From the NCBI GenBank assembly GCA_964507055.1, contig CAZDOJ010000002.1, positions 66,716 through 119,202 of the forward strand: a DNA stretch of 52,487 nt, given 5' to 3'. Position numbers and translations under genes: made by a program. Shown in pieces: positions 4,005-25,591 of this stretch (position 1 is its first letter; each line of letters starts with the position of its first letter). Under the pieces are notes generated by a model. It did no database searches. It was not told the origin of the DNA and was given only the letters and a program-made list of their open reading frames with translations. This stretch comes from an uncultured Gammaproteobacteria bacterium. Its GTDB lineage: Bacteria > Patescibacteriota > Microgenomatia > Levybacterales > UBA12049.

Positions 4005-4042
4005 TGACATATATTATGATAGTACTGTAACTCTGTCCAACC

Positions 4043-4477: not shown

Positions 4478-4518
4478 CTTCGTAAGGCAAATTAACGATA
4501 CTTAAGCACATTTATTTT

Positions 4519-10525: not shown

Positions 10526-10557
10526 ATTATAAAGGAGTGCTATCCAAACACAAGAGT

Positions 10558-11181
10558 TTATTTACGAAGTTCAATTGTTTCAAGCAATGCATCGACTTCT
10601 TTTTCATAACCAAGATTTTGTGGATCGCTTGCTGAATGGGAAATATTAATCGCATTTTTAGATGCTTTATCTTTTTGTAGTATTGTAACTGTAGATTCTC
10701 CTAACCCGCGAGTTTTATAAGTGTATCCAGAGTATCCATTGATGGTGATGCTTTTTTTCGGCTCGATCACTTGCAGCGTGCCATCTGCCGTAGAGTCTTT
10801 GATCTTCTTATCCACCCATTGTTCTAGAGTTTGATTCCCAAGTGCAAAAGGTTCAATGACGACGATTATTCCATCATACATTTCTGTTTGTCCATGTTGT
10901 GTAGCACCTGTTTTGTAGAATCGGACGAATTGTTCATTATTATCAATATCCATTTGCCAGTCATTTGGATACAGTGCAGTAAATACACCATTTGGATCAC
11001 TGTAGCTGTTTCCGCCAGATTTTATCTCTTTCTCCAGTTGTGCCTCAGATTTTTTGGCTGCGGGTGTAGTCATATCTGATGTGGTAGGGGCACTAACGGA
11101 TTTTCGCTGCTGACTCACGTAAAATAGGCCATAACCCACGAGTATTGCTAGCACAATGAGGACGATTATCTTCATTTTCAT
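10558..11181 (-). CDS. Hypothetical membrane-anchored/secreted protein
   Basis: N-terminal TM helix (KIIVLIVLAILVGYGLFYV) followed by a soluble domain. No recognised motif. Confidence 0.55.
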   Translation of the reverse strand: MKMKIIVLIVLAILVGYGLFYVSQQRKSVSAPTTSDMTTPAAKKSEAQLEKEIKSGGNSYSDPNGVFTALYPNDWQMDIDNNEQFVRFYKTGATQHGQTEMYDGIIVVIEPFALGNQTLEQWVDKKIKDSTADGTLQVIEPKKSITINGYSGYTYKTRGLGESTVTILQKDKASKNAINISHSASDPQNLGYEKEVDALLETIELRK

Positions 11182-11238
11182 GTCGGTATATTAATAATTA
11201 TAAACGGAACTGTTGAGAATTTAGTAAGAAAATACAAG

Positions 11239-11574
11239 CTAGATACCAATTTTATAAAGTATATACATCCATAGTTTTTTAAATCCGTGTGAATCTCTCA
11301 TTTGGAAATAGCGTTTTCGTTGTCGGAAATCTTTTGTTCCGGGGAATGGAGGATTTGCCCAGCAGGAAATTATGATAAGTTCATTTTTATAATTCTTCTT
11401 TACAACTACAGTAATAGTCTTTGCATCAATAACTTTCGAATACTCGATGCCGCCATCCTTCCGATTTAGTTTCTTGTGAGGATGAGAAAGTGTATTTGCA
11501 ACAAGTGTTTGAGAAATTTTACGATCTTTTAATCGTTTGCGTGCATGATTTGTCCAAATATACTTTTGACTCAC
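11239..11574 (-). CDS. DUF4258-like (toxin-like) small protein
   Basis: N-terminus YIWTNHARKRLKDRKISQTLVANTL resembles the H-A-x-x-R-x-x-x-R-x-I signature of DUF4258 proteins. No adjacent antitoxin-sized partner. Confidence 0.45.
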   Translation of the reverse strand: MSQKYIWTNHARKRLKDRKISQTLVANTLSHPHKKLNRKDGGIEYSKVIDAKTITVVVKKNYKNELIIISCWANPPFPGTKDFRQRKRYFQMRDSHGFKKLWMYILYKIGI

Positions 11575-11641
11575 TTGGTTTAGTATAACAGCACCATTAA
11601 TACAGATTGTGCAAATGTGGGTCTTGAGCTAATATAAAACT

Positions 11642-12079
11642 ATGAAAGAGATGCAATTCTCACTCGAGATACATGCTAGCAAAGTTAGGGTTTGGGATAC
11701 TCTTTGGCAAGACGAAACATTTCGTGATTGGGCAGGTATCATTGACCCAGGAACATATATGAAGGGTGTCCTGAAAGAAGGCAGTGAAGTAGAGTATATC
11801 TCTGCTGAAAATGGATATGGTGTCACAAGTTTGGTTGAAAAGCTTATTCCAAATGAATTTTTGCTGCTCAGACACAGTGCAGATACGCAGGAGTCCGGAG
11901 CACGAGAGCGTGAAAAAGAGTGGACTGGCGGTGCCGAAAGTTACTCACTAAAAGAAGAAGACGGTATTACAACTTTAACCGTGGCATTTGATGTCCCACC
12001 AGAATTGGAAGAATATTTTAAGGTCCACTATCCAAAAGCTCTAGAGCGAGTTAAAGTATTGGCTGAAAGAAAGAAGTGA
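11642..12079 (+). CDS. SRPBCC / AHSA1 (Activator of Hsp90 ATPase homologue 1-like) domain protein
   Basis: 145 aa. The opening FSLEIHASKVRVWDTLWQDETFRDWAG is typical of the AHSA1/SRPBCC family. Confidence 0.6.
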   Translation: MKEMQFSLEIHASKVRVWDTLWQDETFRDWAGIIDPGTYMKGVLKEGSEVEYISAENGYGVTSLVEKLIPNEFLLLRHSADTQESGAREREKEWTGGAESYSLKEEDGITTLTVAFDVPPELEEYFKVHYPKALERVKVLAERKK

Positions 12080-12138
12080 TTGTCTTCTGAGGTTCTAAAA
12101 CCACCTTGCGAGTTGCATAACCCATTAAGGAATAATGA

Positions 12139-12160
12139 TTGCTGAATCCAAAATCAGCAA
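12139..12160. terminator. Hairpin between convergent genes (probable terminator)
   Basis: TTGCTGA-atccaaaa-TCAGCAA followed by ATATTCTTTT. Lies between the stops of 11642..12079 (+) and 12177..12773 (-). Confidence 0.4.
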
Positions 12161-12176
12161 ATATTCTTTTACAAAC

Positions 12177-12773
12177 TTAAACCAACGTAAGCGGTTCCGA
12201 GGGTTCATATGTTGCAAATATTATGCCAGTTGAAGTAATTTTCCCATCCACCAGCTTAAAACGCTCTGGTTGAGTTCCTTCTGCGAATAGTTTTTTCCCA
12301 GTACCAATAGTGATGGGGAAAGTCCAAAGATGCATTCGATCTACAAGGTTTTCTTCAAGAAGTGTTTGAATAAGATTACTACTACCCCATACCCACAGGT
12401 CAGGACCGTCTGAATTTTTCAGTTTTTTTATCTCTTCTACTACATCTCCTGTAATAAGTTCGGAGTTGTCCCAGGAGAGAGTAGTTGGTTTATGTGAGAC
12501 AACATACTTTTTCGCCTTACTATATGGTTTTCCCCAATGTGGTTCATCTTCATGCTTCGGCCAATATCCGGCAAAAATATCATAGGTTTTTCTTCCAAAG
12601 AGTAAATCAAAAGGTTCGGCTTGAATTCTGTCTGTTATCTTATCTGCTTCTTCATCCCAACCAACCATCCAGCCTCCGTATTTGAATCCCTCGGCAGTAT
12701 CTTCTTTTGAGCCACCCGGAGCCTGCATAACGCCGTCAAGGGTAATCATTGTAGTAGTTATGATTTTTCGCAT
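12177..12773 (-). CDS. Dihydrofolate-reductase-family protein (RibD C-terminal domain type)
   Basis: N-terminus MRKIITTTMITLDGVMQAPGG, plus LLFGRKTYDIFAGYWP and VWGSSNLIQTLLEENLVD, all characteristic of this family. Confidence 0.8.
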   Translation of the reverse strand: MRKIITTTMITLDGVMQAPGGSKEDTAEGFKYGGWMVGWDEEADKITDRIQAEPFDLLFGRKTYDIFAGYWPKHEDEPHWGKPYSKAKKYVVSHKPTTLSWDNSELITGDVVEEIKKLKNSDGPDLWVWGSSNLIQTLLEENLVDRMHLWTFPITIGTGKKLFAEGTQPERFKLVDGKITSTGIIFATYEPSEPLTLV

Positions 12774-12835: not shown

Positions 12836-13120
12836 ATAAGCGAACTTCGAACAATTTGGCATGAAATTGAAACCTTTTTGGATTTTTGCAATGAAGCTCC
12901 TGCTTTATTCAAGAGTTCGAAGCCTGCTCTTCAAAGAGAACTTTTGAGATTTGTTGTCTCGAACCTTTATTTGAAGGATAAAAAGTTTGATTTTGAGCTC
13001 AAAATGCCATTCAACATAGTGGCACAATACTCTGAAAGTGAAAACTGGCAGGGGCTCGTAGAAGACGTTAGAACTTTTTACGCACAAAATGGAGATTTTT
13101 ATATTCCTGCCTTTACTTAA
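12836..13120 (+). pseudogene. 3'-terminal remnant of a large serine recombinase (about the last 95 codons only)
   Basis: The reading frame opens just after an in-frame TAA at 12833-12835. IWHEIETFLDFCNEAPALFKSSKPALQRELLRFVVSNLYLKDKKFDFELKMPF...FYAQN aligns by eye with the C-terminus of the intact recombinase at 22038..23660 (KWLELSTKTFNFACYARIRFMKTESLMEKKEILATIGSNFILQDKLLRLTVPKPF...IYAQN). No catalytic N-terminal domain is present. Confidence 0.7.
13079..13090 (+). repeat. Left copy of a 12-bp imperfect direct repeat (TACGCACAAAAT) at the proposed element junction
   Basis: 10/12 identical to TATGCCCAAAAT at 23631-23642. Both copies encode Y-A-Q-N near the end of a recombinase reading frame. 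Confidence 0.55.
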
Positions 13121-14679
13121 TTATCTCTAAAATCTGGCTCAGTAAATTTACCAATAGTATATTTTTTATCTGCTCTGTTTTCAAGCTCTATCTTATAAAT
13201 CGTTCGGAATGTTTCTTTGTTGATGTTTTCATAAACTATTTCCAATATTGGGCTAGCGACAGTTCCTTCTCGAAGACCGGTTCCTTCAAGATTTCCTGTT
13301 ATAACATGATACTTTTCTTGTTCAGATAATGTAGATGCTCTAAATGGCACGACAACTTCGCCAAGTGTAATACTCTTCAAAATAGCCAATCCTTTACCTG
13401 CGTTAGTTAAATCGAAGTCTGCAAAGTATCCATCTGGTCCACTTCTTAAACTGGTGATTGCTGCAGTTACGAGTGGCCGAAGATTAGGATCTTTTACTGA
13501 TGGAGATACTTGCTGTCTCTCCTTTTTAGATATCTTTGGATGCTGAAAACTTTCGGATACAGTATTTTCGACACATTCTTGAAGCAGCCTATTTAAGAAC
13601 TGTTTATTCGGAACATTGTCCATGTCAATTAAATCTTCAGACTTTGAAATTGGTCTATGCAAAGAATCATCTGAAACAGGTCTGTCTTTTAGTAGATTAA
13701 ACATATAATCTTTATCCGTTTTTCTACCTTTATAGTTATTTGCTAGTTCTTCAAATGTACTGAAGCCCAATAATGGGGGAACATGGTCTGTTATGGCACG
13801 TATTAAAGACAAACATGAAAATGCATTAGAATCGAGATAGTTTTTATTTAATTCGCTTATGAGTTTCAACAGTTTTTTATAATTGAAGCCATCTTTTTTT
13901 TGCTTTATAGCCTCTATAATTCCATCTCTTATGTAAAGTGAAATTGGTTCGGTTTCTGTCGGCTTTGAGTCATTAGATGAACTTTTTGCTTTCATCCATC
14001 TAACAAAATAGTGGGCAGATTTTATGTTTTGATAAACTAGATCAACATTACCAAGAATTTCTTTCGCTAAGGATTCATAATATAAAATAGCAGGAGTAAA
14101 AATTCCTTCACTCATGGCTTCGGTATCTCTTGACATGAAAGTTGCCGGTTGGCGTCCCTTTAGGTATTTCGTACCTTCTTCGCCATATTTTAATTTTTTC
14201 TGGTCTTCCAATAGGTTTTCTTTAGAAATTTCTGTCTGCATGTTTTTATCTGTTTTGATAACCAAAGAAGTTTCATCATAAAAATCCTCAACAATATTTA
14301 TAAGAGTTTTATATTCTCTCTGCAATTCATCAATCGAGATAGTGGAGATTTTTTCTAATTCTTTTTTAACATCTTCTGTATCTTTTTCCATCCATTTATT
14401 TGAAAGACCATTAATGCTACCCCATTCAACACTAAACCTGTCTTGGGTAGGAGGTTTTTCAAAATTTCCATAGTACAATTTATGTTGATATCCAAACCAT
14501 GATCCACTCCATGAACTCAGAATTTTAGGTATACTATCATCGAGCTTTTTTGCTTCCACCTGCAATGAATTGAGTACAGGAATTACTTTCTCTTGGAAGG
14601 AGGATAAAGATTTTTCTATTTTTTCAATATTTTCCATAGTTTTATATTTATTATTTCTTGTAATTATCCATTTAGCCAA
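13117..14679 (-). CDS. Orphan 520-aa protein (cargo gene D), function unknown
   Basis: Long uninterrupted ORF in AT-rich DNA, which has a high stop-codon background, so it is likely real. Overlaps the upstream gene by 16 nt; the alternative start MENIEK at 14637 would remove the overlap. N-terminal coiled-coil-like region, no recognised motif. Confidence 0.6.
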   Translation of the reverse strand: MAKWIITRNNKYKTMENIEKIEKSLSSFQEKVIPVLNSLQVEAKKLDDSIPKILSSWSGSWFGYQHKLYYGNFEKPPTQDRFSVEWGSINGLSNKWMEKDTEDVKKELEKISTISIDELQREYKTLINIVEDFYDETSLVIKTDKNMQTEISKENLLEDQKKLKYGEEGTKYLKGRQPATFMSRDTEAMSEGIFTPAILYYESLAKEILGNVDLVYQNIKSAHYFVRWMKAKSSSNDSKPTETEPISLYIRDGIIEAIKQKKDGFNYKKLLKLISELNKNYLDSNAFSCLSLIRAITDHVPPLLGFSTFEELANNYKGRKTDKDYMFNLLKDRPVSDDSLHRPISKSEDLIDMDNVPNKQFLNRLLQECVENTVSESFQHPKISKKERQQVSPSVKDPNLRPLVTAAITSLRSGPDGYFADFDLTNAGKGLAILKSITLGEVVVPFRASTLSEQEKYHVITGNLEGTGLREGTVASPILEIVYENINKETFRTIYKIELENRADKKYTIGKFTEPDFRDN

Positions 14680-15254
14680 GGAGAAAGATGCATATTGGGA
14701 GATATACCCAAGATAATTTCTTTTGGAAAATGATCAGTATTTCCTGTTTCATGGAACTTCATTTGAAATGCCATCCCTCGGTGATTGCCTTCTATAATGG
14801 AATGGTGATCAGTTGCACTTTTTGAAATTATAATAAGCTTTTCTTCAAAGGGATAAGTGCCGATATTATTTTTTATGTCCTCAATAAGTTGAAAGCCAAC
14901 GCCTTGGTCTGGCACATTATTTTTAATTGCAAGAACTGTATCTTTTAAATTTTTTGCTGTACCAAAAGTTTTCTCCCAACCAGTCTCTCTTATTATCAAA
15001 ATATCACCAAATTCTTTTTCATCGACAGATATTCCATACCAGTGAATATCAGACGGTAACTTCTCTAATACGGGAGATCGATACTGCCAAAGTAGATTTT
15101 TGCGGATTCGGTTGTTCTCTTCATTAGTATAATCTTTATCTTTAACGATATTTTCGAACTGTTTTCTTACCGGCTCATAAAAATCTTTATACCATTCGGC
15201 TCTGAGAAACTCCGCTTCAACTTCAACTATTGGAATTGGACGTAAAATTTTCAT
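14664..15254 (-). CDS. Hypothetical protein (cargo gene C) with an EGNHR motif reminiscent of the ParB/Srx-fold (DGQHR/DGQQR-type) families
   Basis: 196 aa. The C-terminal string SIIEGNHRGMAF resembles the [DE]-G-x-[HQ]-R signature of ParB/sulfiredoxin-fold proteins (DndB, DUF262). Single-motif evidence only. Confidence 0.5.
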   Translation of the reverse strand: MKILRPIPIVEVEAEFLRAEWYKDFYEPVRKQFENIVKDKDYTNEENNRIRKNLLWQYRSPVLEKLPSDIHWYGISVDEKEFGDILIIRETGWEKTFGTAKNLKDTVLAIKNNVPDQGVGFQLIEDIKNNIGTYPFEEKLIIISKSATDHHSIIEGNHRGMAFQMKFHETGNTDHFPKEIILGISPNMHLSPWLNG

Positions 15255-15270
15255 ATTTTTTTTACCATCG

Positions 15271-15972
15271 TTATGATGCTAAATATTCTTGGAACAGTCT
15301 TCTCGCATAGTATTTCCCATGCAGGCTTAAAACATGCCTACTGGATAAAATTACAGTTGCATATATCCCGGCCAAAATCCAAGAAAAAGCCACAGCAGTA
15401 AGATTAGGTATCAGCCAAGTAAAAATAATAATATTTACTAACGACATAGCGAGACCAATAAACGCTCCTCCTATCATGTTACGGGCGGCTCCATAGTGTA
15501 TATTGTGTTGCAGCAGCAGCCGTCCGGCTTTTACCTTTTCACGGATCAAAGTGACAGCTTCAACGATCTTTTTTCTTGCAAGTTCTTCATCCCTTTGCTC
15601 GTCAGTCTTTGAAGAAAGTTTTATATTGAAATCCGTCAATACTTGTTTATGCACTTTCTGCTTAAAGTCATCAGAATAAGTTTGATCCTTAAAAAGTAAC
15701 AATTCTGTCGTTGGGAATTTCAACTCGTCTGAAAAATAAAGGTTTTCTAGTATTGCCTTTGAGATAAATCGGTTTATTTCCATTAAGAAGTATATTGCGA
15801 CCGCAGCGACAGAGACATCGCCGATAACCAAAGCGCCTATTTTTGTGACAACATTCGTAACTGTAGCATCCATATAAAAATGGTAAGTCAAAAGAAACGG
15901 CAGAGAAGTTGCGATTGCGGGATATAATCTTGCTTCGCGAGTATATTGATCCAATTTGAGATCGATTTTCAT
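15271..15972 (-). CDS. Four-TM membrane protein (cargo gene B)
   Basis: Start moved to the internal ATG at 15972 (MKIDLKLDQY...), 1 nt after the stop of the upstream gene (TAA-t-ATG). Two N-terminal TM helices (PAIATSLPFLLTYHFYM; IGALVIGDVSVAAVAIYFLM), a charged helical middle and two C-terminal TM helices (GGAFIGLAMSLVNIIIFTWLI; AVAFSWILAGIYATVILS). Confidence 0.6.
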   Translation of the reverse strand: MKIDLKLDQYTREARLYPAIATSLPFLLTYHFYMDATVTNVVTKIGALVIGDVSVAAVAIYFLMEINRFISKAILENLYFSDELKFPTTELLLFKDQTYSDDFKQKVHKQVLTDFNIKLSSKTDEQRDEELARKKIVEAVTLIREKVKAGRLLLQHNIHYGAARNMIGGAFIGLAMSLVNIIIFTWLIPNLTAVAFSWILAGIYATVILSSRHVLSLHGKYYARRLFQEYLAS

Positions 15973-15973
15973 A

Positions 15974-17080
15974 TTATTCTTTCTCCACCTTATCATTAAA
16001 AGGGAGAGGATTTGCTTGACTCCAACCTCTATCCGGAGCATTATGTCTATGATGGATGGGTTGCCCTTTTGTTCCATATACATTGGTTCCTCTTCTGATC
16101 AATGCGTTCACAACTTTCTTGGATGGGTGTTTCGGAGCTTTTAATGCTGCCGATACTTGCGCTTTTTTTGCTTTTATCCGATCAAGAATAGTTTTACCCA
16201 CATTATGCTTACTGCCATGATGCGGGACATGTAGGAAATAAAGGTCGTCTAGCATTATTCCCATACTTTCCGCATAGTCTGCCGCTGCAGTTAGTGCGGG
16301 TATCCCTGCGTCCCCAGTAAAAAGCAGTTTTTTACCATCAATTGTTAATAACAATATAACGCTGGAGTTATTGGCCGGACTGGTTGTCCCAGAATCATCA
16401 AGAGTTTCAGTTGCGGGATCAAGTGTCTCTTCAACCCATTCGATAGCGGCTTCTGCTGCTCCTTCTACTTTTTCAATAAAGTCGGTTATCACTGTTGTGG
16501 TATTTATTCCAAGGGTTTTTTGCATGAGAGCTACAGCTGTCCTGTTCGCTTCGGGTGTGTTGTCATATTCAGCCAATAAGCACTCGTAGTATTCTTTGGT
16601 GGGGCCAAGTACATGTAAGCTCCTGTCTGCATTTGCCATACCCTCAAATGGTTCGTCAATAGGGATCTCCTTTTCAAAAGCAATTTCTTCAAGGTCTCGG
16701 ATATTGTCAAATGATTTTTGTAGCTCCTGCTCAAACTTTTTATTTGGTATCGGTCGTTGAAACAGTTTTTGCATTTCTTTTTCGTGGTCCCAAGGGACAT
16801 GCATGTAAAGATGTTTTACATCAAGTTGTTCCAAAACAACCGTTAGTCCTGAGCTATGGTCAGCGTCTTGATGAGTTACAAACACTGCATCGACAACAGT
16901 TGTTTTATAATGTGCTTTAATATGATCAACAAGTTTTTGGCCGGACTCTTTGGTTCCGCCATCGATGACAATAATGGTCTGTTGAGGGGTAGGATCGGTG
17001 AGATTGCCAAACCGCAGAGCAATTGCGTCTCCGCTTCGTTCACCATCACCAACATGAATGTAATCGATATCAAATCCCAT
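15974..17080 (-). CDS. MBL-fold metallo-hydrolase of the ComEC/Rec2-like type (cargo gene A), putative nuclease
   Basis: IVIDGGTKESG...VDAVFVTHQDADHSSGL (a variant of the HxHxDH metal motif), LLFTGDAG and LHVPHHGSKHN (the vpHHGS string typical of ComEC-type MBL domains). Soluble, no TM helix. Confidence 0.75.
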   Translation of the reverse strand: MGFDIDYIHVGDGERSGDAIALRFGNLTDPTPQQTIIVIDGGTKESGQKLVDHIKAHYKTTVVDAVFVTHQDADHSSGLTVVLEQLDVKHLYMHVPWDHEKEMQKLFQRPIPNKKFEQELQKSFDNIRDLEEIAFEKEIPIDEPFEGMANADRSLHVLGPTKEYYECLLAEYDNTPEANRTAVALMQKTLGINTTTVITDFIEKVEGAAEAAIEWVEETLDPATETLDDSGTTSPANNSSVILLLTIDGKKLLFTGDAGIPALTAAADYAESMGIMLDDLYFLHVPHHGSKHNVGKTILDRIKAKKAQVSAALKAPKHPSKKVVNALIRRGTNVYGTKGQPIHHRHNAPDRGWSQANPLPFNDKVEKE

Positions 17081-17093
17081 ATTTTATTGCCTT

Positions 17094-17122
17094 TTGACAA
17101 ATAGAGGCTACCATGATATACT
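17094..17122 (+). promoter_or_regulatory. Sigma70-type promoter firing rightward toward the XRE/ImmA genes
   Basis: TTGACA (17094-17099), 17-nt spacer, TG-a-TATACT (extended -10, 17114-17122). Confidence 0.6.
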
Positions 17123-17172
17123 TTTGTTTAGTAATAGTAGCTAAAATAAACTATTTGTTGAAAAGTAAACAG

Positions 17173-17202
17173 AGTATAGACCAGCAAACGGAGGTCTGTC
17201 AA
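17173..17202 (-). promoter_or_regulatory. Sigma70-type promoter firing leftward toward the MBL-hydrolase operon
   Basis: On the minus strand: TTGACA (17202-17197), 18-nt spacer, TATACT (17178-17173). Confidence 0.55.
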
Positions 17203-17213
17203 GAGGGGAAAAT

Positions 17214-17552
17214 ATGGATAATCAAAAATTGATTGGTGAAAGAATAAGGAAAGCACGAGGTGAAGCGGGATTAACTCAAGACGAGTTGGGTGAAAAAGTC
17301 GGCTACTCTGGTATGGGAATTTCTTATTTAGAAAAAGGACAAAGGAATATTACTATTGATATGCTTAATAAAATTGTTGAAGCATTAAATATTAATATCC
17401 ATTATTTACTTGAACCTATTGCTGGCAAAGCTCCCATAAATCATAGCGCGTTCTATGGAAGAATTAATGAGAATGAATACAGCGATGAAGATAAAAAGAA
17501 ACTTCATGATTTTGAATTAATTGTAGAAAAAGAGGCGAATAAAAATGATTAG
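17214..17552 (+). CDS. XRE-family helix-turn-helix transcriptional regulator (ImmR/CapH-like position)
   Basis: IGERIRKARGEAGLTQDELGEKVGYSGMGISYLEKGQRNITIDMLNKIVEALNINIHYL is a classical HTH_3 domain. Overlaps the downstream metalloprotease gene by 8 nt. Confidence 0.85.
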   Translation: MDNQKLIGERIRKARGEAGLTQDELGEKVGYSGMGISYLEKGQRNITIDMLNKIVEALNINIHYLLEPIAGKAPINHSAFYGRINENEYSDEDKKKLHDFELIVEKEANKND

Positions 17553-18081
17553 ATCAAAACTCGCACGAGAAAAAGCAAACAACATTTTAAGAATGTACGG
17601 CGTAAAAAAACCTGCAGTAGACGTGCATCTTGTTGCGCAATTATTGGGGTTTAAAATTATTCCTCATGATTTTCCTGAAACAGTCTCTGCAGTTATTAAA
17701 ATTAAGGATGGAGTGAAAGTTATAGGTGTTAATAAAAATCATTCAGAGACAAGACAACGTTTTTCTATCTCACATGAACTTGGACACTATTTGAGTGGAC
17801 ATGACGATTTTAGCCATGAAAAAATGGTTGTAGATAAAGAAAAAAAATATTTAGATCCTCATTATAGAGATGAGCAAGAAGCAGACGAATTTGCTGCTGA
17901 ACTACTTATGCCGGAATTTATGTTAAAAAAGGATATTCTTGAAGATAATTTAGATGCTTCCACGCTAGCAAGAAGATATAATGTTAGTGAGCAGGCAATG
18001 TGGATACAGCTTATAAATTTAGAGTTAACTCCCGGTCAAATAAAAGAACCTCCACGATCCGAACTACCTTTATCTGACTAG
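17545..18081 (+). CDS. ImmA/IrrE-family zinc metallopeptidase (COG2856-like)
   Basis: HExxH motif in ISHELGHYLSGH, with the downstream EQEADEFAAELLMPEFML typical of the ImmA/IrrE family. Translationally coupled to the XRE gene. Confidence 0.85.
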   Translation: MIRSKLAREKANNILRMYGVKKPAVDVHLVAQLLGFKIIPHDFPETVSAVIKIKDGVKVIGVNKNHSETRQRFSISHELGHYLSGHDDFSHEKMVVDKEKKYLDPHYRDEQEADEFAAELLMPEFMLKKDILEDNLDASTLARRYNVSEQAMWIQLINLELTPGQIKEPPRSELPLSD

Positions 18082-18113
18082 ACCTAGTACGTATCCCCAC
18101 ACGTTGTCCACTG

Positions 18114-18133
18114 CAGCCCATAAACATGGGCTG
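18114..18133. terminator. GC-rich hairpin between convergent genes
   Basis: CAGCCCA-taaaca-TGGGCTG immediately after the ImmA stop and before the stop of 18134..18403 (-). No clean U-run. Confidence 0.35.
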
Positions 18134-18355
18134 TTAAAAACCAACTGACTTACGGCCGTTTTTTAGTTTATGAGTCTTTTTAACTAATGAATTCCTTTCT
18201 GCTGGTGTCATTTCAACAACTTGATCAATTATTATATCTACCATAACTTTGAGTTGGTTCTCTAATCGAAGTATATCTTCGTCAGTCATCGTTTCTGCCT
18301 TTTTTCCTAGTAATTGTCTTGCGCGTTTAATACTAACCATAGCTGCTGGATACAT
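18134..18355 (-). CDS. Small helical hypothetical protein (73 aa from the internal ATG; the ORF track extends it to 18403)
   Basis: The start at 18355 (MYPAAMVSIKRARQLLGKKAETMTDEDILRLENQL...) avoids a 40-nt overlap with the upstream gene. No motif recognised. Confidence 0.4.
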   Translation of the reverse strand: MYPAAMVSIKRARQLLGKKAETMTDEDILRLENQLKVMVDIIIDQVVEMTPAERNSLVKKTHKLKNGRKSVGF

Positions 18356-18363
18356 TAAATTAA

Positions 18364-19143
18364 TCAACTTTCCTTTATATTTTCTGGATGCTCTTTTGCC
18401 CATGTATCAAATAATGCAGCCATATCATGTACTTCAATAACTCCCTTTTTAGTTTTTACAGAGTCATTTATCCAGCAAAATATAGTATCAATTTTTATTT
18501 TATTATCTCTGGTTTGTAATTCGGAAGATTTATAGCAGCTACTAATATGATGGCTTTTACGAATTTCAGTATTAACTGTATTTTTAATAAAAATAAAATT
18601 TGAGGTAAGTATTTTGTCTGGCTGTTTACTTAGTAACTGTAGCCATAAGTCTAACATGTTTTGCATTAATGGTTTTATATAAGAGAGCAATGTCGAACTT
18701 TGAGTAATATATAGTTCCTTGTTTAATAATATGTTTGTAGAATTAGTAAAATTTCTCCAGCGTATAAATTCTTGTTTAGATTCTGAGAGTTGAGCATATA
18801 TTTCTAAAAGCTTATTGCTATATGGAAGTGGTTTTATAAGGTTAAATTCTACAATCTTTTCTATAACAATAGTTCGAGGAGGATAGTGAGGAACATGAAT
18901 ACCTTTATCATCGGTTAAGTTTTTTTCGTAGGATCGTTCAATTTGTGAAATATTATTTAAATTTATCCATAGTTCATGTATTAACATCCTTTCAATTTCC
19001 GTTTTATTACTTTTATTATTTGAGGATTCAATTATTCGTCCTGCCCAAATACTGAAAGGAATTGCGAAAACAATACCTACTGTAGTTAATACGCCTTGGT
19101 TGTTATTTAGAATTTCTGAGATATTCATATTTGGACATACCAT
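18364..19143 (-). CDS. Hypothetical protein with one N-terminal TM helix (259 aa)
   Basis: Long ORF in very AT-rich DNA (spot count 18% GC on one line). TM helix GVLTTVGIVFAIPFSIWAG. No recognised domain. Confidence 0.55.
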   Translation of the reverse strand: MVCPNMNISEILNNNQGVLTTVGIVFAIPFSIWAGRIIESSNNKSNKTEIERMLIHELWINLNNISQIERSYEKNLTDDKGIHVPHYPPRTIVIEKIVEFNLIKPLPYSNKLLEIYAQLSESKQEFIRWRNFTNSTNILLNKELYITQSSTLLSYIKPLMQNMLDLWLQLLSKQPDKILTSNFIFIKNTVNTEIRKSHHISSCYKSSELQTRDNKIKIDTIFCWINDSVKTKKGVIEVHDMAALFDTWAKEHPENIKES

Positions 19144-19416
19144 AGAGATAGACAGAGTTTAAGCCTTTTTTGATCGTAAATCAATAATTCTATTGAGTTT
19201 TACACACCTGTATGTGGAGCCACAGGATAGCTTTAAAGGCATGTGTTGTATTTCTTGATACAATTCTTCTGAAGAATAATAATTGAAATAAAATGTCTGT
19301 TTAATCCTGAGGCTATCTCTGGCTAAGATTTTTGTATTTTACCGACACATTTAGGCATGTAAAATATTGTCGCATAGTGATCGGATGAGAACAAAAAATA
19401 AAGAGATTACTTAAAC

Positions 19417-20121
19417 TTAGTTTACAATCAGTTTTGCATTCAATTCTTGATCTAAGTAATCAAGAATAACGCCATCCTTGCTTCTTGGAACTGCAAAGGT
19501 AACTGTACTTTCATAATTTCCTGCGTGCTCTGCAACTCCAACTATAGTAAACGTTCTTGTTTCTCCAGGAAGAATTTTCATAAGATCATTATTCCATACA
19601 AAATCATTTGGCAATGCTTCAGGATTAACTCCACCACTCATAACGCTTGTAACCTTAAATCCATTTTTTATGAAATCATCGTCTGCAAATCTAATGTGAA
19701 ACATGTCTACAGATTTTGTTTCATCGTTATTTGTAACAGTAAATGTAATTACTACCTTTTCTCCTTGAGAAGCAACACTTGGTTCAACTTTACCATCAAT
19801 GGTAAGGTTGGTTGATTGTTCATAAGCAGAATTTGAGACCTCAGAAGTGTTTGAAGCAGATTGCTCGGAATTACTTTGTCCATTTACCACTATGGTAACA
19901 ATAAATAGCACGAGGAAAAGTAGGGCTTTATATTTATTTGACAGAGCAAAATTCCATTTGCTCCTTACTTCATTCCAAAAAGGAGGGAAGATAATCAATC
20001 CTAATGATATACCTAAAGTGCCTATTACTGGATTTGAAAACAGCTTGAAAAATCCCCATAAAAGGAAAATTGTACCAAATGTCCACCCCAAAATAGTACT
20101 AGCATTTAATTTATTTTTCAT
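19417..20121 (-). CDS. Membrane protein with a C-terminal beta-sandwich-like domain (CARDB/DUF11-like pattern), hypothetical
   Basis: Three N-terminal TM helices, then EKVVITFTVTNNDETKSVDMFHIRF ... PGETRTFTIVGVAEHAGNYESTVTFAV, an alternating beta-strand pattern typical of adhesin-like Ig folds. Confidence 0.5.
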   Translation of the reverse strand: MKNKLNASTILGWTFGTIFLLWGFFKLFSNPVIGTLGISLGLIIFPPFWNEVRSKWNFALSNKYKALLFLVLFIVTIVVNGQSNSEQSASNTSEVSNSAYEQSTNLTIDGKVEPSVASQGEKVVITFTVTNNDETKSVDMFHIRFADDDFIKNGFKVTSVMSGGVNPEALPNDFVWNNDLMKILPGETRTFTIVGVAEHAGNYESTVTFAVPRSKDGVILDYLDQELNAKLIVN

Positions 20122-20245
20122 AAGTGTATCCTCATATATTCACTATAGGTTGAAATTGATTATAGATTACTATATCAATAAAATCAAGTACTAATTCTAC
20201 TAGTTGTGCGTATTACTAAAAGTAGATATTTGTTACAAATTTAAT

Positions 20246-20470
20246 ATGTTAAGCAGAACAAAATATACTGAAATCGTAGGCAATAATATCCGTGAAGTCC
20301 GAAAAAGAAAAGGGCTTAGCCAGGACGAACTCGCTGCGAAATGCGGATTTTATCGGACATATATTAATTTAGTAGAAACTGCTAAAAGAAGTCCGTCAGG
20401 ATACTCACTATACAGGATTGCAAAAGGACTAGGAGTGCAAGTAGATGAACTTTTCCCAACAACAGTATAA
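20246..20470 (+). CDS. XRE-family HTH regulator (74 aa from the ATG at 20246)
   Basis: VGNNIREVRKRKGLSQDELAAKCGFYRTYINLVETAKRSPSGYSLYRIAKGLGVQVDELF is a classical HTH_3 domain. The ORF-track TTG start at 20204 is probably too far upstream. Confidence 0.8.
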   Translation: MLSRTKYTEIVGNNIREVRKRKGLSQDELAAKCGFYRTYINLVETAKRSPSGYSLYRIAKGLGVQVDELFPTTV

Positions 20471-20663
20471 AAACCTCACATAATCTCCAATAAGCAAAGT
20501 TACATATCATTCAATGCGCTAGCACCAATTTAGCCTTAAAAGTAGAAAAAGCGATAGCGGTTATAATTTCGTCGAGAAATTTTAGGATTATTTCAAGGCT
20601 ATTTTTCTCTTCACCTATTAAATTCGCCAAAATACCGTTTTCCACATAACATAGATAAAACAT

Positions 20664-20716
20664 GGTTGGGGATAAAACCGGGCTTTTTGGTTCCCCAACC
20701 AAGCCCGGTTTTTTGT
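20664..20716 (+). terminator. Interlocked inverted repeats; the distal pair is a terminator-like hairpin with an A-tract and a T-tract
   Basis: A=GGTTGGGGA (20664-20672) pairs with TCCCCAACC (20692-20700). B=AAACCGGGCTT (20675-20685) pairs with AAGCCCGGTTT (20701-20711), followed by TTTTG. Confidence 0.5.
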
Positions 20717-20723
20717 GGAAAAT

Positions 20724-20894
20724 ATGCTATCGAAGAGAGCAATCAATGATTTCAAAGTGATCTATAAAAAGGAGTTTGGAGTAGAAATATCAGATCAAGA
20801 AGCACAAGAGCAGGGAGAAAAACTTTTGCGCTTATTCAAAATAATTTACAAGCCAATTCCCAAAGAGTGGATTGAACACAAGAATAGAAAATAA
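20724..20894 (+). CDS. Small hypothetical protein (56 aa), below the ORF-track cutoff
   Basis: Own translation: MLSKRAINDFKVIYKKEFGVEISDQEAQEQGEKLLRLFKIIYKPIPKEWIEHKNRK. Starts right after the terminator-like structure, on the same strand as the downstream element genes. Confidence 0.4.
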   Translation: MLSKRAINDFKVIYKKEFGVEISDQEAQEQGEKLLRLFKIIYKPIPKEWIEHKNRK

Positions 20895-21045
20895 TATAAC
20901 TTGAGAAGTTCGGCTGAAAAAAATGTAAATTAGATAGCCTTAAATATATAAGACAGATATCTATATATGAATAATTTATTTATCTAATTAATATTATGAA
21001 CGAATTTTAAATCTCGATAGAGATCAAATAGGAGGAGAAAGATAA

Positions 21046-21225
21046 ATGGTTAAGGATAATAATTTCAAAACAATCGTTTTAATAAAACCACAATATATAC
21101 CAATTCGATGTCCTGTATGTAAAGGGTTTGGGACAGTTAATTTTGGTAAATCTCCGTGTAAAGCGTGTGAAAAGCTTGGATACTTAAAAATTCCACCTGA
21201 AAAAGATTCTTATGGAGGAGAATGA
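21046..21225 (+). CDS. Small zinc-ribbon protein (59 aa, CxxC...CxxC), below the ORF-track cutoff
   Basis: Strong SD (AGGAGGAG 7-8 nt upstream). MVKDNNFKTIVLIKPQYIPIRCPVCKGFGTVNFGKSPCKACEKLGYLKIPPEKDSYGGE. The stop overlaps the next start as ATGA (21222-21225). Confidence 0.6.
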   Translation: MVKDNNFKTIVLIKPQYIPIRCPVCKGFGTVNFGKSPCKACEKLGYLKIPPEKDSYGGE

Positions 21226-21947
21226 AGGATAAATATTTTTTCAAATTATTCATTAATAATGAACAATTGGATTATTTAAGATCTGATCCTCTATTATTTG
21301 CTGTACTGATAGAATGCGCACGAAGAGCAAGGCGTGTGAAAGATACTTCACCAGAAGGGCTTGAACAAAAAGAGTTTTTTTTATCTAGAACAGAATTTGC
21401 TAAATTTGGGTTACGTGCGAGTCAACAAGGGCTTATAGATCGTCGCATGAAAGAACTTGTTAAACTTGGATATATCCAAGATACGTACAAACGCATAGGC
21501 AAAGGAATAGGCAACGAAAGATCAAAGGTTTGGCTCTTTAATTCAAACAATACAATAATGCCACTTTTTGAGTCAGACATCAAAATAGACAGCGGATCAG
21601 ACGTTATAGAAGCACAGAACAATCTTGGTGCGAGCAGTAAAGTAGATAGGAAAGAGAAAAGAGAAGATGAGAAAGAGAGACTATGCTTCTCGTCTCTCAC
21701 TCCTTGTGATGACGATTGTATCTTAGAAATCGCAATGACGAGACTTGCATATAAAAAAGATGTTAAAGCTATACGTATTGAATTACAGGAAGATATTAAA
21801 AAATTTCCAAATAAATATAAAACTTTCCATGAATCACTCAGTAGAAGGGTAAGGTATAAACTTGTAAAAAGTTATATTCATTTTGCATATGCAGATTACA
21901 GAGTGAAATTAGATAGAGAATATAGAAAAAGTAATAGGCATAAATAA
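21222..21947 (+). CDS. Hypothetical element protein, possibly winged-helix DNA-binding (replication/regulation)
   Basis: 241 aa. The N-terminal region LFAVLIECARRARR...EFFLSRTEFAKFGLRASQQGLIDRRMKELVKLGYIQ looks like a wHTH. Translationally coupled to the zinc-ribbon ORF. Confidence 0.35.
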   Translation: MKDKYFFKLFINNEQLDYLRSDPLLFAVLIECARRARRVKDTSPEGLEQKEFFLSRTEFAKFGLRASQQGLIDRRMKELVKLGYIQDTYKRIGKGIGNERSKVWLFNSNNTIMPLFESDIKIDSGSDVIEAQNNLGASSKVDRKEKREDEKERLCFSSLTPCDDDCILEIAMTRLAYKKDVKAIRIELQEDIKKFPNKYKTFHESLSRRVRYKLVKSYIHFAYADYRVKLDREYRKSNRHK

Positions 21948-22037
21948 TATTGTTCAAAGTGTTTAAGAACTCAAATTTTTAGCCTTGAAAACAACTTGTA
22001 GCACTATATAATGCTAATAATCCCAAATTGACGAATT

Positions 22038-23660
22038 ATGTATATACCACAAGACTTAAAAAATATAACTTTTGATATTTATAAACGCCGAAGTAGCGAC
22101 GATGCAGATCATCAAGTTGCTTCTCTGGAGTCCCAGCATGAAGTATTAATAAATCTAGTTAAGGATAATAAGATCAAAATAGGCCAAATTGTTGAGGAAT
22201 CTATGTCTGCAAAGCAACCTGGAAGGCCGGTATTTAATGAAGAAATACGAAGAATTGAGCTTGGAGAAATCCAGGGACTTATTATTTGGGATTTATCTCG
22301 CGCCTCTCGTAATCCTGTGGATAGTGGTACGTTAAGCTGGTTGCTGCAAAAAGAAAAATTAAAAGCAATTATTACTCCTCACAAAATATATTTGCCCGAA
22401 GATAATGTTCTACTTCTAAATGTAGAATTTGGTATGGCAAATCAATATTTGCGAGATCTATCAAGAAACGTGAAGCGAGGTATGCAGAACAAGCTTAATA
22501 ATGGCTGGAGACCGGGAATTGTTCCTGAGGGCTATTCACATGATTTAGTGTCCGAACGAGGTAAAAAGGAAATTCTAACAGATTCTGTGCGGTTTCCTCT
22601 AATTCGTAGAGCTTGGGATTTACTTTTAACTGGAAATTACACAGTTCAGCAGATTTTGAGGATCATGAATCATGATTGGGGGTATCGTACAAATAGGCAT
22701 AGAAGCTTAGGAGGAAAGGAATTAGGAAAATCATCTATATATACCATATTTACAAATACATTCTATTATGGAGAGTTTGAATATCCTTTAAATAGTGGGA
22801 AATGGTATGAAGGTAAGCACGAAAAGATGATAACGAAAGCTGAATATGATAAAGCTCAGACAATACTTGGAGCACGAGGCAAACCGAGACCAAAAAGGAA
22901 GGAATTTGCTTTTACTGGAATGATACGATGTGGTGAATGTAATGCAATGGTTACAGCTGAAGAAAAGATAAATAGATTTGGATCAAGATATACATATTAT
23001 CACTGTACTAAACGTGTAAATAAGAAATGCGGTCAACGATCAATAGAGCTTGATGACTTTGAAGAACAAGTTGATTTTCTTCTTTCACGAATTGAAATAC
23101 CGGAATCATTCAAAGATTGGGCTATAAAGTATCTTAATGAACTACATGATAAAGAGTCAAAAGATCAAGATGTGATAGTAACGAGTGTGGATACAGCTTG
23201 CAAAAACTGTTTGACCAAAATAAACAATCTCATAAAATTGAAAATATCTCCTATGAATGAGGATGGCTCTTTGTTATCAGATGAAGATTTTGAACGACAA
23301 ATGAAACCTTTGAAACAAGAAAAGAAGAGTTTGGAGAGTAATAGACAGAACTTAGGAGAACGTGCAGATAAATGGCTTGAGCTATCGACTAAGACCTTTA
23401 ATTTTGCTTGTTATGCACGAATTCGATTTATGAAGACTGAATCACTTATGGAGAAGAAAGAGATATTGGCGACAATCGGTTCGAACTTTATTCTACAAGA
23501 CAAATTATTGCGACTTACCGTGCCAAAACCGTTTATTGCTATTCAAAAAGCGAAGGATAAGGTAGATGAATTAATTGCTAGGTTCGAACCCGAAGAAAAG
23601 ACTGATGTGTCAAGCCAAATGATGTACATATATGCCCAAAATTCGTCATTGCAGGGGTAG
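22038..23660 (+). CDS. Large serine recombinase/integrase
   Basis: Resolvase-type N-terminus YKRRSSDDADHQVASLESQ (catalytic Ser), a recombinase domain, the zinc ribbon CGECNAMVTAEEK...YYHCTKRVNKKCGQRS and a coiled-coil C-terminal region. The last 9 nt overlap tRNA-Trp. Confidence 0.9.
   Translation: MYIPQDLKNITFDIYKRRSSDDADHQVASLESQHEVLINLVKDNKIKIGQIVEESMSAKQPGRPVFNEEIRRIELGEIQGLIIWDLSRASRNPVDSGTLSWLLQKEKLKAIITPHKIYLPEDNVLLLNVEFGMANQYLRDLSRNVKRGMQNKLNNGWRPGIVPEGYSHDLVSERGKKEILTDSVRFPLIRRAWDLLLTGNYTVQQILRIMNHDWGYRTNRHRSLGGKELGKSSIYTIFTNTFYYGEFEYPLNSGKWYEGKHEKMITKAEYDKAQTILGARGKPRPKRKEFAFTGMIRCGECNAMVTAEEKINRFGSRYTYYHCTKRVNKKCGQRSIELDDFEEQVDFLLSRIEIPESFKDWAIKYLNELHDKESKDQDVIVTSVDTACKNCLTKINNLIKLKISPMNEDGSLLSDEDFERQMKPLKQEKKSLESNRQNLGERADKWLELSTKTFNFACYARIRFMKTESLMEKKEILATIGSNFILQDKLLRLTVPKPFIAIQKAKDKVDELIARFEPEEKTDVSSQMMYIYAQNSSLQG
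23631..23642 (+). repeat. Right copy of the 12-bp imperfect direct repeat (TATGCCCAAAAT)
   Basis: 10/12 identical to 13079-13090. Encodes Y-A-Q-N of the intact recombinase. The two reading frames diverge completely after this point. Confidence 0.55.
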
Positions 23661-23722
23661 AGGGAATCGAACCCCCAGTCGCGGTTTTGGAGACCGCTGG
23701 TTTACCGTTAACCGATACCCCT
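23652..23722 (-). tRNA. trnW: tRNA-Trp (anticodon CCA)
   Basis: Hand-folded cloverleaf: AGGGGTA-TC-GGTT-AACGGTA-AACC-A-GCGGT-CTCCAAA-ACCGC-GACT-GGGGG-TTCGATT-CCCTC-TACCCCT-G. 71 nt, CCA not encoded. Confidence 0.9.
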
Positions 23723-23826: not shown

Positions 23827-24393
23827 ATGGATAACCCACAAGTGCCTACAGGAGACATTATCATGCCTGACGATAATAGGGCAAATGAACTAAAAGAAGC
23901 GTTTAATAAGAAAGTTATTGAATTAGATAGTTTGCAAATTCGAGGTCAACTCGCAAACCTTGAAGAACCTCTCGATAAAGCTGACATTCCAGTTATTTCT
24001 TTCGGACTTATTGCCGAGTTACAAGATACTGTAGCTAATTGGCCAAAGAGAAAAGAAATGACTTTTGAAGGTAAGACCTATCGCACATATAGTACTGCTT
24101 TGGTTAACTTGGAAGGGGATTCGAAGCTATTGTTCACTGAGGTCCAGCTCATGTATCACACACCTGAAGATAAATATCCATATGGTGCGAGCCTAACAGA
24201 AACAAAACCTGATGAGAATGGTTCTCTTCATGAAAGACATTTTTCAGCAAAGTTTTACTCTGAGTCTGGTGCAGAAATTCAATACGTAGAATATCCATAC
24301 CGCCAAAAGGAAAATGGAAAGCCTGTTATTAATACAAAAGCAATTGTGGTTGTAGCACGAAGATTAATTCAACAATTGCCTCGTTCGGGATAA
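23827..24393 (+). CDS. Hypothetical protein (188 aa)
   Basis: Clean ORF between tRNA-Trp and rpmG. No recognised motif. Confidence 0.5.
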   Translation: MDNPQVPTGDIIMPDDNRANELKEAFNKKVIELDSLQIRGQLANLEEPLDKADIPVISFGLIAELQDTVANWPKRKEMTFEGKTYRTYSTALVNLEGDSKLLFTEVQLMYHTPEDKYPYGASLTETKPDENGSLHERHFSAKFYSESGAEIQYVEYPYRQKENGKPVINTKAIVVVARRLIQQLPRSG

Positions 24394-24430
24394 GATTCGT
24401 TTAAGAGAACTCAAAGAAGAAAAAAGGGGA

Positions 24431-24607
24431 CTACTTAAGTTTAGGATTTTCTTTGTGTTCAGTTACTTTTCTACAGAATTTACAGAATTTGTTTAACAAC
24501 AACTTTTCTGGAGTTTCCATTTTGTTTTTTTGCGTGATGTAGTTGCGGTTTTTGCAAACCTGACATACAAGTCCTAATTTGATACGGTGTTCGCCCTTTT
24601 TAGCCAT
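24431..24607 (-). CDS. rpmG: 50S ribosomal protein L33 (zinc-binding type)
   Basis: Below the ORF-track cutoff. Own translation: MAKKGEHRIKLGLVCQVCKNRNYITQKNKMETPEKLLLNKFCKFCRKVTEHKENPKLK, with CxxC...CxxC and the NYxTxKNK core of L33. Confidence 0.9.
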   Translation of the reverse strand: MAKKGEHRIKLGLVCQVCKNRNYITQKNKMETPEKLLLNKFCKFCRKVTEHKENPKLK

Positions 24608-24676
24608 ACGAGTGATTATACACTATTTGCGGCAGGTTTGGAAGAGCCTTTGATAAATTCATCAAAGGTTATTCTG

Positions 24677-24748
<72 letters not shown>

Positions 24749-24811
24749 ACGTTTTAACGCGATTGAACTATTGTAGCAAATTTTTTTGAGTGTGTCTTAC
24801 GGATTTTGGGG

Positions 24812-24840
24812 TTGCCCAAGCAAAGAAGGTCTGATAAAAT
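24812..24840 (+). promoter_or_regulatory. Candidate promoter for the tRNA-Thr/tRNA-Tyr pair
   Basis: TTGCCC (24812-24817), 17-nt spacer, TAAAAT (24835-24840), about 17 nt upstream of the tRNA 5' end. Confidence 0.4.
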
Positions 24841-24856
24841 TGCATTTGTGGCACAA

Positions 24857-24928
24857 GCCTTCTTAGCTCAGCGGTAGAGCAGCTGTTTTGTAAACAGCAG
24901 GTCGTCGGTCCGAATCCGACAGAAGGCT
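24857..24928 (+). tRNA. trnT: tRNA-Thr (anticodon TGT)
   Basis: Cloverleaf: GCCTTCT-TA-GCTC-AGCGGTA-GAGC-A-GCTGT-TTTGTAA-ACAGC-AGGTC-GTCGG-TCCGAAT-CCGAC-AGAAGGC-T. 72 nt. Confidence 0.9.
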
Positions 24929-24942
24929 CACAGTCACAATAT

Positions 24943-25026
24943 GCTGGATTGGCGGAGTAGTCAATCGCACCTCGCTGTAGACGAGGCGGCCTTCGGCCTA
25001 CGGGAGTGCAAATCTCTCATCCAGCA
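24943..25026 (+). tRNA. trnY: tRNA-Tyr (anticodon GTA), class II with long variable arm
   Basis: GCTGGAT-TG-GCG-GAGTAGTCAAT-CGC-A-CCTCG-CTGTAGA-CGAGG-CGGCCTTCGGCCTAC-GGGAG-TGCAAAT-CTCTC-ATCCAGC-A. 84 nt. Confidence 0.9.
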
Positions 25027-25591
25027 CTAAGTCTTCCTTTTTTAACTCCATTAAATAAGCCAAATCTTTCTCTTCAGGAATTTTTGCTGTCCGTACATAT
25101 GTAAATCCAACTTTCTCGTAGGTTCTAATTGCCCGTTTATTCTCTGGCTCAGGATCGATGATGCACATTGTGATATCTAGTTCTTGAAATACGATTTGAT
25201 GAAGAAAAGCCTGAATCATCAATGTCCCAAAACCTTTTCCAATAAAATCAGGCTCTCCAACAAATAGATCAATGCCAGCGATGCCATCCGCATAACCTGT
25301 AGCGTCACGAAATTCTTTCCAATCCTTAGGGTAGTATTTTTGGATATAACCCACAGGTTTTCCTGTATAGTGCACGATAAAACCGTATGTAGGCTCTTTC
25401 AGCTGTTCGAAATCGTATCGTTTAGAAACTTCTTCAAGTGTGTTTATTTCGTCTTTGTCGTACCATTTATGAACATGAGGGAGATTAAGCCATTTTGTTA
25501 TTAATACATAATCTTCCGCCTGTAAAGACGTAAAAGTAATTTGTTCCGGATCAAACATGTGGGAGAAAAAAGAATCACAACCGTTCTTCAA
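24998..25591 (-). CDS. GNAT-family N-acetyltransferase (aminoglycoside-acetyltransferase-like / Acetyltransf_8 pattern)
   Basis: ITKWLNLPHVHKWY ... IAGIDLFVGEPDFIGKGFGTLMI ... DPEPENKRAIRTYEKVGF is the GNAT acetyl-CoA-binding pattern. The last 29 nt are antisense to tRNA-Tyr. Confidence 0.75.
   Translation of the reverse strand: MKNGCDSFFSHMFDPEQITFTSLQAEDYVLITKWLNLPHVHKWYDKDEINTLEEVSKRYDFEQLKEPTYGFIVHYTGKPVGYIQKYYPKDWKEFRDATGYADGIAGIDLFVGEPDFIGKGFGTLMIQAFLHQIVFQELDITMCIIDPEPENKRAIRTYEKVGFTYVRTAKIPEEKDLAYLMELKKEDLVLDERFALP

Follow-up and report, generated by a model that had tools for sequence, protein, structure and literature searches.

The stretch of DNA analyzed here (52,487 nt of contig CAZDOJ010000002.1, henceforth the window; all coordinates given without another locus name are positions in it) carries an integrative element of 10,603 bp inserted at the outermost 3′ nucleotides of a tRNA-Trp gene, located at 13048 to 23650 or, equivalently, at 13055 to 23657. 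The heptamer GCAGGGG is present at both junctions, at 13048 to 13054 (attL) and at 23651 to 23657 (attR), and no longer direct repeat flanking the element was found. Insertion was likely the work of the large serine recombinase (LSR) that the element encodes, with the crossover in GCAGGGG, among the final codons of the LSR gene. This gene (22038 to 23660, plus strand, 540 aa in the integrated form) overlaps the tRNA by its last 10 nt, and its stop codon, TAG, falls in the acceptor stem. The tRNA-Trp(cca) (23651 to 23722, minus strand, detected by ARAGORN) is intact, and the right core extends over acceptor positions 68 to 72, the discriminator, and one nucleotide beyond it on the 3′ side. The protein has a resolvase catalytic domain (Pfam Resolvase, residues 14 to 156, E = 4.7e-14), followed by Recombinase (PF07508, E = 1.2e-7) and a zinc beta-ribbon (PF13408, Zn_ribbon_recom, E = 3.8e-9); R17 and S19 are invariant in a 50-sequence alignment of these recombinases.

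Relatives of the site that do not have the element fix its boundaries. Immediately to the left, at 12857 to 13047 (plus strand), is the relic of an older LSR gene, which forms the left arm of attL and keeps only ca. 64 C-terminal codons, with an internal gap of ca. 27 aa; hhalign matches it to the family alignment with a probability of 92% (E = 6.5e-7). Searching for homologues of the relic, we retrieved P0121 (75% identical, ending in ...LYSKNENWQG*), and on its contig, L165, this homologue runs straight into tRNA-Trp. When the unmodified window is compared to L165 by BLAST, the left match stops at 13053 and the right match restarts at 23651, overlapping on GCAGGG; after in silico deletion of 13055 to 23657, a single ungapped match crosses the junction (181/220 identities, 82%; E = 7e-61). 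Another locus, L146, has the same right flank as the window (M50 peptidase, tRNA-Thr/Tyr/Thr, ribosomal protein L33, and an identical tRNA-Trp) and no integrase, and its homology to the attR of the window begins at GCAGGGG. It also contains copies of the displaced recombinase tail described below, which match the window rightwards from GCAG(G/A)GG for ca. 60 nt, including TACGCACAAAAT, and are unrelated to it on the left. The comparisons with L165 and L146 thus define the insert as 10,603 bp bounded by GCAGGGG copies, and the att pairs of the family limit the crossover to the first 4 nt of the core. The pre-insertion site, as deduced from these comparisons, is relic-core-tRNA-Trp, with a predicted empty-site junction reading ...GAAAGTGAAAACTGGCAGGGGTAGAGGGAATCGAACC... 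and a predicted attP junction of the element reading ...CCCAAAATTCGTCATTGCAGGGGCTCGTAGAAGACGTTAGAAC....

The sequence next to the left core completes the recombinase. The segment 13055 to 13120 (plus strand) encodes a displaced tail of 21 codons (LVEDVRTFYAQNGDFYIPAFT plus stop), which would be the P′ arm of the attachment site, and its sequence is conserved in the three tails of L146. With 23657 joined to 13055, the gene encodes 561 aa, and its product ends in ...YAQNSSLQGLVEDVRTFYAQNGDFYIPAFT, i.e., ...YAQNSSLQG-LVEDVRTFYAQNGDFYIPAFT. This rebuilt protein is collinear, residue for residue, with P0010 (...YAKNPTLLKTVDDVRTFYAQLSPSQQYYIPTFA), a homologue in the free form, and also with the free-form P0004, both of them 70% identical, while the closest integrated relative is P0002 (83% identity). 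The contig of P0010, L005 (11,142 nt), has a 30-nt terminal overlap, and is therefore circular, and carries no tRNA. It encodes, besides P0010, a DnaG-type primase-like zinc-ribbon protein and an AAA_25 helicase-like protein, and its core, TTGCTG, matches tRNA-Gln and not tRNA-Trp; it is likely the episomal form of a related element. In the mechanism that we propose, integration would leave the tRNA intact, and the recombinase would lose its last 21 codons and stop at the TAG in the acceptor stem. The tail would be left behind at attL, 10.6 kb off, as an in-frame extension of the relic that formerly abutted the tRNA, and excision would rebuild the 561-aa enzyme.

Alternative boundaries and routes of insertion

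An initial annotation of this DNA had placed the crossover in a 12-bp repeat on the YAQN codons of two recombinase frames, with an excised circle encoding a recombinase that ends in ...YAQNGDFYIPAFT. The repeat does exist: TACGCACAAAAT (13079 to 13090) and TATGCCCAAAAT (23631 to 23642), both on the plus strand, are 10/12 identical, lie 10,552 bp apart, and encode Tyr-Ala-Gln-Asn in serine-recombinase frames near the C-termini, the left one in the truncated relic and the right one in the intact gene that runs into tRNA-Trp. It also holds that the last cargo open reading frame (ORF; 13117 to 14679, minus strand) ends 27 bp from the left copy. The two frames are indeed unrelated after the 12-mers, as had been noted, but divergence is not confined to that side, since the preceding sequences are unrelated too. 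When pairs of 120-nt stretches are compared, a match of 10/12 or better turns up in 35% of shuffled and 40% of random real pairs, and each 12-mer has another 8 to 14 such matches within the window. Moreover, when the relic is aligned with 26 C-termini of the family and with a 50-sequence profile, the YAQN of the intact gene, which is the conserved Y-A-Q-N motif of the family and lies inside the P arm 9 to 20 nt left of the core, pairs with YSES of the relic, and the YAQN of the relic comes ca. 13 residues further on, inside the displaced tail and after the conserved D-[DE]-V-R-T motif. Being a chance-level match at nonhomologous positions, the repeat carries no meaning as a crossover. The junction cores are 31 bp to the left of the left 12-mer and 9 bp to the right of the right one, homology with the tails of L146 extends over those 31 nt up to GCAGGGG, and L165 joins relic and tRNA at GCAGGG and lacks YAQN altogether. 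The 544-aa product proposed for the circle would delete DVRT, a motif found in every free-form homologue. A crossover in the repeat is already refuted by L165 and L146, whose different insertion boundary is an outcome that the annotation itself had named as refuting it, and we give it practically no credence. Its more general proposals fared better. The crossover does fall within the 3′-terminal part of the recombinase ORF (the core is where free and integrated forms begin to differ), the C-terminal residues are exchanged (the last 21 codons are replaced by a stop inside the tRNA), and the target was a site left at tRNA-Trp by an earlier recombinase gene, which L165 preserves joined directly to the tRNA.

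Relic and tail could also be one contiguous 3′ end of an older recombinase gene that never recombined, so that 13048 would be no element boundary. The reading frame is unbroken through the core, and chromosomal free-form genes do occur elsewhere (e.g., L009, 3066 to 4703). However, an unbroken frame is what is expected when two related genes cross over at the same codon position, the relic homologue in L165 stops at the core and is followed by tRNA-Trp with no tail, and the closest match of the tail DNA is the tail of P0010, which is related to the intact gene (70% identity) and not to the relic. We regard this explanation as very improbable. Somewhat less remote, albeit still improbable, is that the element came to lie beside the relic by a route other than its LSR, i.e., homologous or illegitimate recombination or the transfer of a larger composite island. 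The directionality of LSRs speaks for it: the target is a hybrid site, made of the P-type arm of the relic and the tRNA arm, and recombination of attP with such an attR-like site would not be expected of canonical LSRs. Against it, the two junctions share 7 bp with unrelated arms, too little for homologous recombination; the junction is at the exact position used by eight other att pairs of the family; and similar tandem layouts recur in L009, L071, L047, L073, and L146. Insertion by the element's own LSR into the core is the reading that we retain, but the hybrid nature of the target does count against it, and so do several other observations. The L165 contig, from a different organism (82% identity), spans no more than 613 nt. 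No dyad symmetry of the left with the right half-sites was apparent by inspection. Direct signs that this copy is mobile were not seen, and all seven contigs encoding its recombinase (P0001) are in the integrated state; an exact look-up in a collection of 15 billion sequences found neither the 561-aa nor the 544-aa product; and no recombination directionality factor was identified among the ORFs of the element.

An attachment site shared across the recombinase family

We recovered 3,519 homologues of the recombinase (E ≤ 1e-10), mostly from Patescibacteria, and surveyed 80 loci from genome contigs. After the motif Y[AS][QK]NPxLL, their C-termini are of two kinds. The read-through form (e.g., ...LRRGWDSNPR) is the antisense translation of the acceptor stem and T-arm of a tRNA, and the free form has a tail such as ...D[DE]VRT[WF]x(6-8)[FY]Y[IV]PxF, to which LVEDVRTFYAQNGDFYIPAFT at the end of the relic belongs. 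At 43 of the 80 loci, ARAGORN calls a tRNA on the opposite strand (Asn, Trp, Gln, His, Gly, Ser, Leu, Ile, or Ala), and the ORF stops within the 3′ end of this tRNA; at another ca. 15 to 20 it ends in acceptor/T-arm tRNA-like sequence that ARAGORN does not call; and ca. 10 have a free-form tail, one of them on a circular contig. In the integrated loci L020, L032, L044, L047, L060, and L077, the tail was found at the opposite end of the element, at a distance of 6 to 10 kb. L163 (free form) and L164 (beside tRNA-like sequence) differ by one mismatch over the last ca. 125 nt up to CCTGCGGGG and then diverge; they are nearly one gene in two states. The crossover within the integrase coding sequence is seen in the divergence of free and integrated forms at the core, in the tail at attL, and in the circular free form. 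Homologues on viral contigs are mostly distant (23 to 36% identity), and several end in tRNA-like sequence at contig ends, which is uninformative for the locus studied here. Among the loci not called by ARAGORN, L022, L026, L045, L046, L064, L073 (at about 11570 to 11700), and others have a clear acceptor stem and T-arm and look atypical beyond the T-arm; these targets may be intron-containing, unusual, or broken tRNA genes. In L164, two LSR genes (851 to 2722 and 3285 to 4913) lie in tandem on the same strand, ca. 560 bp apart, and the first ends in tRNA-like sequence.

The eight further attL/attR pairs that we compared have only the short core in common (5 to 13 bp, versus 7 bp here). The shared block always takes in the discriminator, the nucleotide on its 3′ side, and positions 72 and 71, and in three pairs it ends exactly at 71. 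The central dinucleotide is most likely AG (13050 to 13051 and 23653 to 23654, plus strand; tRNA positions 72 to 71), since it is the sole nonpalindromic candidate that fits both these blocks and tail C of L146, which reads GA|AGGGG. GC was also considered and is unlikely, being palindromic and at odds with the same tail. With AG as the center, the tRNA arm consists of 12 inner bases followed by the T-loop box TCGAAC (plus strand, 23667 to 23672). In every att pair, the tail arm has a box, T(A/C)GAAC, encoded by V-R-T, whose distance from the core exceeds that of the T-loop box by 5 bp; in the element it is GTTAGAAC, at 13067 to 13074. The V-R-T codons are almost always GTT-(C/A)GA-ACN (box GTTMGAAC), even in genomes with 54 to 59% GC, which argues for a constraint on the tail at the DNA level. 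Both right half-sites share one box, the genuine T-loop in B′ and its mimic GTTAGAAC in P′, 5 bp further out.

The half-sites of attP are longer than those of attB in LSRs, and an offset of 5 bp between the two was reportedly described by Rutherford and Van Duyne in 2013; the displacement of the box between P′ and B′ is the spacing difference expected from this. In published half-site analyses, the inner 12 bases are assigned to the RD domain and the outer segment to the ZD domain (PMC12286644). The zinc-ribbon domain of the enzyme would be the part that reads the T-loop box. The spacing of this outer motif fits in the right arms of all pairs, and the left arms have no matching motif by inspection, so that, with no dyad symmetry between left and right, the model rests on the right arms. 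The left arms show no conservation from locus to locus, and recognition therefore seems to occur mainly through the tRNA arm.

Several features support the idea that the same tRNA site was used repeatedly: the relic beside the tRNA, its homologue in L165, and the arrays of two or three tails found at L047, L073, and L146. In the tandem cases L009 and L071, the upstream recombinase or relic is fused to the tail of the next element. No second tail or older attL was found leftwards in the window by a six-frame motif scan or by nhmmer with a tail profile. In L146 (9487 to 15690, minus strand relative to the locus), three recombinase tails lacking an integrase, at 15627, 11829, and 10460, are placed in a row beside tRNA-Trp. 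Each heads a block of 1 to 4 kb of unrelated genes and has a loosely similar A-rich left arm of ca. 20 nt. These blocks may be decayed elements or cassettes mobilized in trans.

The exchange of the tail might also act as a switch of the enzyme that depends on the state of integration, in which case its loss may change the activity of the recombinase. We favor this tentatively, as a possibility that falls somewhat short of probable, because conserved peptide motifs of the tail ([FY]Y[IV]PxF in short tails and AAALIYAHF[KR]KEF in long ones) lie 40 to 75 nt past the core, beyond any plausible half-site, and such a switch would have a parallel in phage Mx8 (PMC6070905). The alternative is that the overlap of attP and ORF is mere compaction of the site, and that the tail has no function as protein and is conserved only as a DNA-level att constraint. 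The V-R-T codons, fixed at synonymous positions, point in this direction, as does the arbitrary read-through into the tRNA at the C-termini of the integrated forms. A half-site typically spans ca. 25 bp, however, and the tail motifs are outside it, which makes compaction as the whole explanation doubtful.

Cargo and flanking genes

The cargo is not common to related elements. Next to the tail is an operon of four ORFs (520, 196, 270, and 368 aa; 13117 to 17080, minus strand), the last of which codes for a metallo-beta-lactamase-fold protein (Pfam Lactamase_B, E = 1.3e-11; PADLOC PDC-M48B, E = 6.4e-90; LmuA, E = 7e-31). The other three had no match in Pfam, PADLOC, or further family searches, so that only the B component of the PDC-M48 defense system is recognizable. 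Divergent from this operon is a CapH/CapP-like pair (17214 to 18081, plus strand), formed by a helix-turn-helix (HTH) regulator (112 aa; Pfam HTH_3; PADLOC capH, E = 6e-12) and an M78 peptidase (178 aa; Peptidase_M78; capP, E = 2.5e-29). Together, 13117 to 18081 looks like a candidate anti-phage defense module. Three ORFs without significant family match follow (89, 259, and 234 aa; 18134 to 20121, minus strand), and then a module adjacent to the integrase (20204 to 21947, plus strand) with an HTH regulator (88 aa, by HTH matches), a 59-aa ORF, and a 241-aa ORF; the 59-aa ORF is common to the element, the circular relative L005, and L088.

To the left of the relic, 9167 to 12773 contains genes of accessory type (two unknown ORFs, a DUF4258 toxin-like protein, an SRPBCC/AHSA1-like protein, and a RibD_C reductase). 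This flank may derive from an older island at the same tRNA, and no att-like site was found in it. A public contig with the same element, L002, starts exactly at the left edge of the relic (ca. 12839), which suggests an assembly break caused by strain variation or a repeat. The right flank (23827 to 25027) belongs to the host core and comprises a 188-aa ORF, a homologue of ribosomal protein L33 (24431 to 24607), tRNA-Thr(ggt), tRNA-Thr(tgt), and tRNA-Tyr; it is syntenic with L138, L145, and L146.

Significance and relation to known systems

Targeting of tRNA genes has so far been treated as a property of tyrosine integrases; the enzymes described here form a large clade of serine integrases that target these genes, and their attachment site lies in their own reading frame. 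The odd “...RGWDSNPR” C-termini of annotated recombinases are explained as read-through into tRNA genes, and the pattern provides a simple rule to delimit mobile elements in the genomes of Patescibacteria, otherwise hard to annotate. These are natural serine integrases with a highly conserved tRNA sequence as attB, which may interest genome engineers, and they provide an example, open to testing, of an enzyme with a C-terminus set by the integration state of its element. Taken as a whole, the clade could be a general system of integration at tRNA 3′ ends in Patescibacteria and some other phyla, in which the enzyme would read the universal T-loop box, the D-V-R-T codons would provide a T-loop mimic as attP arm, the tail swap would switch between free and integrated states, and integrase-less modules of the L146 type might be cassettes mobilized in trans that build integron-like arrays on tRNA genes. 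All these parts holding jointly is, in our view, rather unlikely.

LSRs carry out unidirectional attP × attB recombination, and their excision requires a directionality factor. The enzyme of the element shares with those of phiC31, Bxb1, A118/LI, and TP901-1 the Resolvase, Recombinase, and zinc-ribbon architecture and short att sites with a small common core, and canonical serine integrases have one inner RD and one outer ZD motif per half-site (PMC12286644). The canonical phage LSRs differ in having their attB in protein-coding genes or intergenic DNA and their attP outside the integrase ORF. In 2014, the Islander paper stated that serine integrases were not known to target tRNA genes (PMC4383910), Durrant et al. 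(2022) make no mention of tRNA, and a minority of tycheposons are reported to have LSRs, with no details given. We found no description in the literature of serine integrases that insert at tRNA 3′ ends and have their attP within the ORF. Like the islands of the Islander type, which use tyrosine integrases, the element is inserted at a tRNA 3′ end, preserves the tRNA, has its integrase beside it, and shows tandem accretion; unlike them, its recombinase is of the serine class, and there is no displaced tRNA fragment of at least 15 bp at the far end, where only 7 bp of the intact tRNA-Trp recur.

An attP within a coding sequence is known from mycobacteriophages BPs and Brujita, which have a tyrosine integrase and carry attP in the repressor gene, so that integration removes a C-terminal segment and changes the protein. 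The element resembles this integration-dependent immunity in that a C-terminal segment is lost upon integration, but the truncated gene is that of the recombinase itself and not of a repressor. The SSV-type integrases of archaea target tRNA genes. These “suicidal” virus and plasmid enzymes also have the recombination site inside their ORF, and integration disrupts the gene (PMC7253208, PMC8371274). They are, however, archaeal tyrosine recombinases whose gene is split in two large parts, whereas the element loses 21 codons only, and its catalytic and DNA-binding domains stay intact. The other of the two closest analogues, besides the SSV type, is IntP of the Myxococcus phage Mx8, in which, according to PMC6070905 (citing Tojo 1996 and Magrini 1999), attP is inside the integrase coding sequence; upon integration a recombinant gene arises whose 3′ end is new, and the enzyme behaves differently. 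Mx8 Int is a tyrosine recombinase, in contrast to the enzyme of the element, an LSR with only serine recombinase domains and a 7-bp core, whose new 3′ end is a mere stop in the tRNA. It works like the Mx8 and SSV enzymes without being a member of their group.

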